From the IMG/VR virus record IMGVR_UViG_3300027734_000039: 64,000 bases of DNA. The stretch is one strand, 5' to 3'. This DNA is from a virus. Position 1 is the first letter of the stretch. Every line of letters begins with the position of its first letter. The notes beneath the pieces are model-generated. The model was not told the origin of the DNA, made no database searches, and saw nothing but the letters and a program-made list of their open reading frames with translations. Below, in pieces: positions 46,484-46,931 of the stretch. The position numbers were made by a program, and so were the translations under genes.

Positions 46484-46558
46484 TGGTTGGCACAGGTGGT
46501 TACGATCCACCGACCCCTGTCTTATCAGGACAGTGCTCTACCGCTGAGCTATGCGCCA
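46484..46558 (-). tRNA. tRNA-Ile(GAT)
   Basis: CTGATAA loop; T loop ATCGTAA. Confidence 0.9.
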
Positions 46559-46613
46559 ATATTAAAAAAGTCCCCATCCTAGATCGCCAGTTATTCCCCT
46601 GCTAGGGCGATTC

Positions 46614-46662
46614 CACGCGACACCGAAGTGTTTCATGCCATTACAGGCAATCATCAGGCGTA
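46614..46662 (-). ncRNA. type I hammerhead ribozyme
   Basis: UACGC-CUGAUGA-U-UGCC(UGUAAU)GGCA-U-GAAA-CAC(UUCG)GUG-UC/GCGUG: full core with stems I-III. Confidence 0.8.
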
Positions 46663-46722
46663 TAAGTGCAGGGCTAGATGTCCACAAGTTCGATGGGGTG
46701 GTGGACCACACGCCTCTTATAA

Positions 46723-46874
46723 TTGTCTCTTCAAGGATGCACCAGCTATCTAACTTCTGTCACCACCGTCGATTACAGCTGATTATACGGACTGAGAAGG
46801 CTACCTCTGCGTTAAATATTCTGCAGACGCTTCGGGCTCTGATGCACCCATGAAGAGACAACCGAAGTTGCCTC
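46723..46874 (-). ncRNA. unknown multibranch structured RNA
   Basis: Roughly 23-bp imperfect closing stem TTGTCTCTTCA.GGGTGCATCAG/CTGGTGCATCC.TGAAGAGACAA with internal hairpins. Confidence 0.5.
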
Positions 46875-46904
46875 AACAAGTTTCTAACAATTTCAAACAA
46901 CAAT

Positions 46905-46931
46905 AAAAAAGGCGGGATTTTAGTCCCGCCT
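46905..46931 (-). terminator. intrinsic terminator
   Basis: AGGCGGGA/TCCCGCCT stem plus T-tract on the - strand. Confidence 0.8.

Follow-up and report, generated by a model that had tools for sequence, protein, structure and literature searches.

A predicted type I hammerhead ribozyme lodged in a conserved double-pseudoknot RNA cassette of phages

Introduction

The purpose of bacterial and phage hammerhead ribozymes has been an open question since their discovery in thousands of genomes in 2011. The locus described here gives that question a concrete form: on the minus strand of a 64,000-nucleotide stretch of viral DNA (IMG/VR record IMGVR_UViG_3300027734_000039; the whole stretch is hereafter called the window), an initial annotation made from the sequence had read a complete hammerhead at the 5' end of a tRNA array, and it had proposed either a regulated self-cleaving leader for processing of the tRNA polycistron or an RNA in two pieces that remain paired once cleaved. 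The window belonged to a freshwater T4-like phage, as indicated by regA upstream and by freshwater metagenome runs. The questions raised are whether this hammerhead is genuine, what it is embedded in, and which of the two proposals fits better.

Materials and methods

Homologues were collected in three ways: (i) a sensitive BLAST search of deposited phages with a 171-nt stretch as the query; (ii) an IMG/VR pattern scan anchored in the ribozyme; and (iii) a second IMG/VR pattern scan anchored in the downstream motif GGAR-N11-GGGGAAUAACUG only, and thus blind to the hammerhead. The two IMG/VR scans together yielded well over 100 loci. Alignment A3 was composed of 54 distinct hammerhead-bearing members from unrelated phages, and covariance model R1 was built from it; a further set of 99 scaffold members was found with a hammerhead-blind anchor confined to the 3' domain. 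The raw counts of a pattern scan across a genome collection were not usable, with 22 real matches among the first 120 and about 550 chance matches estimated (15.5 specified bases, 596-Gb collection). The MAFFT alignment of hammerhead-less members, from which row L248 was excluded, had the loop strand of PK1 out of register, which gave 59% paired for that helix. Literature searches covered both the conserved string and reports of hammerheads in mycobacteriophages or in the tRNA arrays of phages.

Results

The hammerhead in the window

All positions of the conserved hammerhead core (C3 U4 G5 A6 N7 G8 A9, G12 A13 A14, A15.1-U16.1, and H17) were present on the minus strand (Table 1), and the cut was predicted between C17 (46619) and G1.1 (46618). 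Position 10.1/11.1 was U46650.U46635, not the G10.1-C11.1 pair that usually closes stem II. The predicted minimum-energy fold of a 53-nt minimal construct (46664-46612) was exactly the hammerhead secondary structure, with -12.4 kcal/mol.

Table 1. Features of the cassette and of the adjacent tRNA gene (window coordinates).
Feature	Position	Strand	Remarks
Cassette as a whole	about 46723-46561	-	conserved unit plus flank helix
P0, 5' strand, AUUAUAAGAG	46714..46723	-	weak AU-rich closing helix with 46570-46561
Leader 1: N (G46713), then CGUGUG	46707..46713	-	CGUG invariant in A3; family form N-CGUG(K)G
Hairpin H1	46680..46706 (46706-46701 with 46685-46680)	-	97% paired; double changes at 5/6 pairs
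PK1: CCCCAUC (H1 loop) with GAUGGGG	46698-46692 with 46578-46572	-	92% paired; compensatory changes at 7/7
Helix c: CUAG (in CAUCUAG)	46677-46674 with 46582-46579	-	84% paired, little covariation; weakest helix
Helix a/a': CCCUGC with GCAGGG	46673-46668 with 46602-46597	-	100% paired; 3/6 covary, 3 invariant C-G
Type I hammerhead: stems I-III plus core	46614..46662	-	sequence, A3 conservation, covariation, predicted fold
Stem I: UACGC/GCGUG	46662-46658 with 46618-46614	-	open stem; 5' and 3' ends leave here
Core C3-A9: CUGAUGA	46657-46651	-
Stem II	46650-46646 with 46639-46635	-	four standard pairs, U.U at 10.1/11.1, loop UGUAAU
G12-A14 (GAA)	46634-46632	-
Stem III: ACAC/GUGU, UUCG cap	46631-46628 with 46623-46620 (46631-46620 including cap)	-
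Leader 2: GCGUGGA	46612..46618	-	CG.GGA invariant; family form N-CGYGGA; 3' strand of stem I
Hairpin b/b'	46583..46611 (46611-46606 with 46588-46583)	-	99.7% paired; double changes at 5/6
Loop of b/b'	CUA, a' (46602-46597), GAAUAACU (46596-46589)	-	GAAUAACU near-invariant
Tail: AC, U6 tract, and AAU	46561..46571	-	3' strand of P0
tRNA-Ile(GAU)	46484..46558	-	first tRNA of the array; ARAGORN and Rfam

The window taken by itself gave no statistical signal: the bare core pattern without stems had seven matches against 4.5 expected, which is chance level, and the folding energy was no better than that of shuffles (z = 0.55 for the whole element, and -0.11), as is expected of a pseudoknotted RNA. 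The significance of the element thus rests on comparison. The Rfam hammerhead-model search suggested in the initial annotation turned out to be uninformative: Rfam 15 made no hammerhead call in the window at the gathering threshold and none on 14 member loci, but the same scan also missed the textbook type I hammerheads of two control loci, L034 and L043. The best Rfam score was an 11.3-bit partial match of a 67-nt query to RF00008 (the type III model; threshold 48.5), and no usable match was obtained up to E = 10 with 301-nt and 67-nt window queries. These control loci each harbored several canonical type I hammerheads (CUGAUGAGUCCC...GGGACGAAAC) flanking short genes, namely four copies at about 356-1972 from the minus end in L043 and those within L034:9603-10387.

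Conservation and covariation among homologues

The BLAST search gave same-strand matches in (i) Arthrobacter phages Constance and Karkharias (73% identity over 110 nt), (ii) Mycobacterium phage Gaia, and (iii) four Mycobacterium abscessus prophages, and in several of the matched phages the match lay among tRNA genes. In N4-like Klebsiella and Escherichia phages, the match covered the ribozyme alone (85% identity), and the surrounding pseudoknot differed in sequence but had the same topology as that of the window. The hammerheads of these coliphages were unannotated (L002:1507-1552 in Klebsiella phage vB_KoxiM_BaqKoxi and L005:1507-1552 in Escherichia phage vB_EcoM_PD205); they were located downstream of tRNA genes and displayed U.U at 10.1/11.1 and loop II as in the window.

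Across A3, C3 (replaced by U in Gaia only), U4, G5, A6, G8, A9, G12-A14, A15.1, U16.1, and C1.2-G1.3 were kept, and position 17 was C, A, or U and never G. All three hammerhead stems covaried: stem I was 96% paired, with GC, CG, and AU at 1.1/2.1 in 29, 23, and two members, respectively, and stems II and III displayed many double changes. The U3 of Gaia came together with A8, a double change of the tertiary C3-G8 pair (the window has C3 and G8), and U3-A8 is a natural covariation of this pair in active hammerheads (Perreault 2011, PMC3088659). The proposed structure as a whole had 92.1% of its pair cells paired in A3, compared to 67.9% after shuffling and at most 42.7% with partners slid; its covariation score was 0.609 versus 0.17 and was matched by none of 500 shuffles.

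These data also dispose of a functionless chance match to the hammerhead consensus, for which the unenriched core pattern, an Rfam score never above 11.3 bits, and the shuffle-like folding energy might be cited: it is refuted by the 54 distinct sequences, drawn from unrelated phages, in which the element is conserved and covaries, and since clear type I hammerheads are likewise missed by Rfam, the low score counts for little; the probability left to it is close to nil. The segment 46662-46614 is thus, on comparative grounds, almost certainly a genuine type I hammerhead under selection, with the GUC site, UUCG cap, and cleavage position that had first been read there, and the covariation check in related phages that had been called for came out in its favor. 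Self-cleavage in vivo is likely.

The U.U at 10.1/11.1, already noticed in the initial annotation, is a family trait: A3 had G-C at this position in 41% of its members and A.A or U.U homo-pairs in 48%, with a mutual information of 1.29. The deviation appears from the alignment to be conserved in the family, and G10.1-C11.1 to be a usual rather than a strictly defining hammerhead feature; with U.U, the A9/G10.1 metal site would lack its N7, which may slow catalysis. A loop II of the form UGNRAU was kept in the subfamily of the window and in the N4-like phages with other flanks, and GNRA-type loops were found in other subfamilies; no partner for loop II was identified in the stem I region. One further member (L157:542-701, minus strand) had C for G at core position 5 (CUCAAGA), and its hammerhead may be inactive or a variant.

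A double-pseudoknot scaffold with the hammerhead as an optional insert

The alignments place the hammerhead within loop 1 of a double-pseudoknot scaffold of about 105 nt that is autonomous of the ribozyme. The scaffold was organized, from 5' to 3', as leader 1, H1, CAUCUAG, helix a, a variable insert, leader 2, and the b/b' hairpin; a/a' crosses b/b' to form an H-type pseudoknot, and PK1 crosses H1. The same helices were the top signals of an unsupervised mutual-information scan, and R1 found a single copy in the window (117.6 bits). The scaffold appears to be built of two halves that resemble each other and pair crosswise; each contains a leader, a hairpin whose loop engages in pairing, a linker, and a target. 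The pairings across the cut site proposed at the outset, CCCCAUC with GAUGGGG and CCCUGC with GCAGGG, are PK1 and helix a, both real covarying helices; the idea of a hammerhead embedded in a larger conserved fold thus held, and the independent scaffold made up by b/b', H1, and P0 had been missed.

P0 was general in the family and closed the unit in most members, with a mean flank duplex of -18.6 kcal/mol compared to -10.9 kcal/mol for mismatched flanks (p = 6e-16), and the P0 duplex of the window itself was weak (-6.9 kcal/mol). No terminator-like site was called at the U6 tract (46569-46564), which is probably not a terminator but the 3' strand of the weak P0 helix. The tract lay 5 nt upstream of tRNA-Ile and not about 60 nt, as had been stated; it is the cleavage site that lies 60 nt upstream, and the tRNA starts 3 nt after the end of the cassette.

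The 99 members found with the hammerhead-blind anchor fell into three groups: (i) 76 (about 77%) with a hammerhead; (ii) 10 with no insert and only 6-7 nt at this place (for example, L145, L050, L058, and L076); and (iii) 13 with another insert, mostly a short hairpin, a few being probably variant hammerheads. A recognizable hammerhead was thus missing in about one-fifth (~20%) of the members, and the scaffold was kept: H1, a, and b were 99-100% paired with covariation, and the hammerhead-less members carried long P0 helices. No Rfam match was found up to E = 10 for hammerhead-less L145.

Two mutually exclusive pairings of stem I

The initial annotation had suggested that an upstream GGCGUGU competes with stem I, and the comparative data support such a switch. 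The base preceding the 5' CGUG (G46713) was identical to position 1.1 (G46618) in 80 of the 83 parsed members, and the same base was Watson-Crick complementary to position 2.1 in 98% of the 54 members of A3; the 5' strand of stem I can thus pair with either leader 1 or leader 2. Where stem I has Y, leader 1 had an invariant U, which can pair with A as well as with G. The alternative helix of the window spanned 7 bp, included C3, and by nearest-neighbor rules exceeded stem I in stability by about 3 kcal/mol. The reading preferred here is an ordered folding, in which leader 1 would give way to leader 2. The identity between the 5' base and position 1.1 also held in members without a hammerhead, so the switch cannot be its whole reason, and it may reflect the pseudo-symmetry of the scaffold halves.

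Genomic context and distribution

Among 79 distinct members, 31 had tRNA genes within a few kilobases and 48 had none there; 217 of 220 nearby tRNAs were on the strand of the element, a tRNA lay within 200 nt in 23 members and within 15 nt in eight, and in L076, L057, L152, and L158 the element filled a slot of a tRNA array with gaps of 0-4 nt on both sides. Other members were located in operons of head and packaging genes, on the coding strand: (i) in L060 and L130, with the element between terminase and portal, (ii) upstream of terminase in L019 and L096, and (iii) upstream of a capsid gene in L012. The cassette is thus not tRNA-specific, and the dedicated leader of a tRNA polycistron envisaged at first does not agree with its presence at terminase, portal, and capsid genes or with the 48 members lacking nearby tRNAs.

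The scaffold was found in phages of Proteobacteria, Actinobacteria, Firmicutes, Chloroflexi, and Spirochaetes, and verified copies in prophage-like DNA came from Burkholderia, Bordetella, Lysobacter, Ochrobactrum, Asticcacaulis, Mycobacterium, Clostridia, Bacilli, Spirochaetes, and Thermomicrobiales. In L021, the closest relative, the element was almost identical and showed compensatory changes in H1 and b, but its flanks were unrelated. A 129-nt contig from freshwater DNA run X4 joined 46722 directly to 46560, that is, without the cassette and near the P0 borders; this hints, from a join whose shorter side is only 32 nt, that a related phage population lacks the whole cassette. Taken with the flanks of L021, the contig indicates that the unit can be swapped as a cassette. 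The single metatranscriptome run, X24, yielded no contig across 46570-46920.

Directly upstream of the cassette in the window, a strong terminator-like hairpin (46934-46907, minus strand) was followed by about 190 nt without a convincing open reading frame; BLAST of the stretch 46717-46910 against deposited phages gave no match, and the sequence at the corresponding place in L021 was unrelated. Two arrays with hammerhead-less scaffolds contained further structured RNA genes: (i) a complete bacterial class A RNase P RNA (L057:2968-3382, minus strand; IMG/VR 3300045837_000152; 266 bits) within a phage array of about 27 tRNAs and (ii) a tmRNA gene (L145:3523-3882, plus strand; 116 bits) heading a phage array of about 22 tRNAs, where the scaffold lay 19 nt after tRNA-Gly and a few hundred bases beyond the tmRNA gene.

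Discussion

Comparison with known RNAs

The ribozyme itself is of a known class and one known in phages. It shared with type I hammerheads (PMC3088659; Rfam clan with RF00163) the core, the three-stem junction, the open stem I, H17, and the U3-A8 covariation, and type I hammerheads are also found between genes of phage operons, with pseudoknots near stems I and II. Unlike them, the family described here has the strands of stem I entering a conserved double pseudoknot that also exists without a hammerhead, frequent A.A or U.U at 10.1/11.1, an upstream duplicate of stem I's 3' strand that covaries with position 2.1, and a habitat in tRNA slots; it is also not scored by the Rfam models.

Theta (minimal HDV-like) ribozymes (Kienbeck 2024, PMC10879173) are likewise phage-encoded, pseudoknotted, and adjacent to same-strand tRNAs, and a part in processing the tRNA transcripts of viruses has been proposed for them. 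Theta and other HDV-like ribozymes cut at their own 5' ends, whereas the element described here belongs to a different class, with an internal cut, and is not confined to tRNA contexts. An HDV-like or theta identity of the scaffold was considered and rejected: manual threading with H1 as P1 and PK1 as P2 fitted the topology, yet only 6 nt remained at the place of P3/L3, and a J4/2 with the catalytic C was absent because c' abuts the 3' strand of PK1. The Rfam HDV clan gave no match on members with or without the hammerhead, and twister, twister-sister, pistol, hatchet, and other Rfam families gave none up to E = 10 for the window element and L145, and none at the gathering threshold on 14 member loci.

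Species 1 and 2 of T4 (rnaC and rnaD) are likewise small non-tRNA RNAs that are co-transcribed in a tRNA cluster, fill slots in it, and are released by tRNA processing, but a hammerhead is absent from both, and the end of rnaC is a tRNA-like T arm. They were rejected as relatives, since R1 had no match in the T4 tRNA region (L159) and their sequences are unlike the element. Catalytic RNAs nested in or fused with a second structured domain, where alternative pairings gate catalysis, include the glmS ribozyme and the c-di-GMP-II riboswitch combined with a group I ribozyme. The cassette differs from these composites in that no ligand is known for it, its second domain also occurs alone, and its ribozyme is a hammerhead. 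To our knowledge, no natural allosteric form of the hammerhead has been established.

No description of the scaffold was found in Rfam 15 or the searchable literature, an absence that is not proof of novelty, and it was also absent from PMC10085705 (permuted hammerheads) and PMC8782182 (cyPhyRNA-seq). The scaffold thus seems to be undescribed. It might represent a new, widespread class of functional phage RNA, acting as a protein decoy or cofactor or as a second catalytic or ligand-binding RNA, with the hammerhead recruited to nick it after folding, though the chances of this are put slightly below even.

Proposed mechanism and its alternatives

The reading preferred here, with somewhat better than even chances, is that the cassette is an autonomously folding, self-nicking, two-piece stable RNA. 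During transcription, the 5' strand of stem I (46662-46658) would pair first with the identical leader 1 (46713-46709), so that the ribozyme is held off; as soon as the 3' half has been transcribed and the pseudoknots have formed, the same strand would swap to leader 2 (46618-46614), and the hammerhead would then nick loop 1 between C46619 and G46618. The pieces would be held together by about 17 bp outside stem I (a/a', c/c', and PK1), or about 22 bp if stem I stays paired. The outer ends would be set by tRNA processing or by P0, with RNase P at tRNA-Ile presumably trimming the 3' side, and the resulting 3' piece would be 46618-46559, 60 nt with a 5'-OH and with leader 2 at its start. The mature nicked RNA would be a discrete stable RNA, as suggested by the 0-4 nt gaps to tRNAs, the same-strand tRNAs, and the generality of P0; it would have a partner, probably a protein, and be more than a cut site. 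The motif, the helices, their conservation, the optional nature of the hammerhead, and the genomic contexts are shown here, whereas cleavage in vivo, this order of folding, persistence of the two pieces, and a role in trans are inferred. The two-piece RNA staying paired after cleavage is the better fitting of the two options raised at the outset; that it has a function of its own is a tentative proposal, not quite an even bet.

The weak P0 of the window itself speaks against the two-piece stable RNA, as do the many members in mRNA operons, where processing in cis is equally natural. A cis-acting processing or stability module, in which the scaffold positions stem I and the cut severs a leader or mRNA from downstream tRNAs or genes, leaving structured, exonuclease-resistant ends with a 2',3'-cyclic phosphate upstream and a 5'-OH downstream, would be consistent with a family found on the coding strand inside long operons (L060, L130, L019, L096, and L012) and with the hammerhead in about 77% of members, and operon processing has been proposed for prophage hammerheads (Perreault 2011, PMC3088659). 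Yet hammerhead-less members keep the whole scaffold under covariation, tRNA processing already sets both ends within 0-4 nt in the arrays, which makes protection of neighbors moot, and the products remain base-paired, so that cleavage alone leaves upstream and downstream RNA joined; such a module is considered unlikely as the main explanation. The unpaired nucleotides around the H-type pseudoknot are highly conserved, as they are around pseudoknots of small pseudoknot aptamers, and two mutually exclusive pairings are supported by covariation; both would suit a natural aptazyme whose pseudoknot core (CCC/GGG, GAAUAACU, and CG.GGA) controls cleavage by binding a metabolite or protein and thereby tipping the choice between the two leaders. 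This is improbable, as no ligand and no consistent gene association are seen, hammerhead-less scaffolds have nothing to regulate, and ordered co-transcriptional folding explains the switch equally well.

A little more improbable still is a selfish mobile cassette, which would cleave and religate to 5'-OH RNA starting with NCGYG (leader 1 included) and so give circles or transposition at the RNA level. Since the type I arrangement keeps the catalytic core with the 2',3'-cyclic phosphate, religation could occur, and type I architecture suits cis cleavage and trans ligation (Perreault 2011, PMC3088659). The presence/absence polymorphism at the cassette borders, the near-identical elements in different flanks, the 73% identity shared by the elements of a freshwater T4-like phage and of Arthrobacter phages, the occurrence in prophages from six or more bacterial phyla or major lineages, and the direct repeat NCGYGG bordering the first half on both sides would all fit it, but no route to a 5'-OH at leader 1 is known, no reverse transcriptase or endonuclease is consistently near, and many unpaired bases are under strong purifying selection, which suggests that the element serves its carrier.

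Implications

The ribozyme described here has a fixed address in a second conserved RNA to which it is dispensable, and an on/off pairing with covariation support. The scaffold would be a new abundant class of structured RNA missing from Rfam 15. If it is functional in its own right and the hammerhead was recruited to nick it after folding, bacterial and phage hammerheads would gain a defined, testable job, and the element would be the first natural hammerhead gated by a conserved conformational switch. These proposals are testable in culturable carriers, namely Mycobacterium phage Gaia, Arthrobacter phage Constance, and prophages of M. abscessus, Burkholderia, and Bordetella, and the hammerhead of the N4-like coliphages could serve as a convenient Escherichia coli system. 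In two of these carriers, coding sequences annotated as "hypothetical protein" overlapped the RNA element, Gaia gene 147 (L003:1609-1902) and Constance gene 68 (L001:1435-1545), and both are probably mis-called open reading frames.
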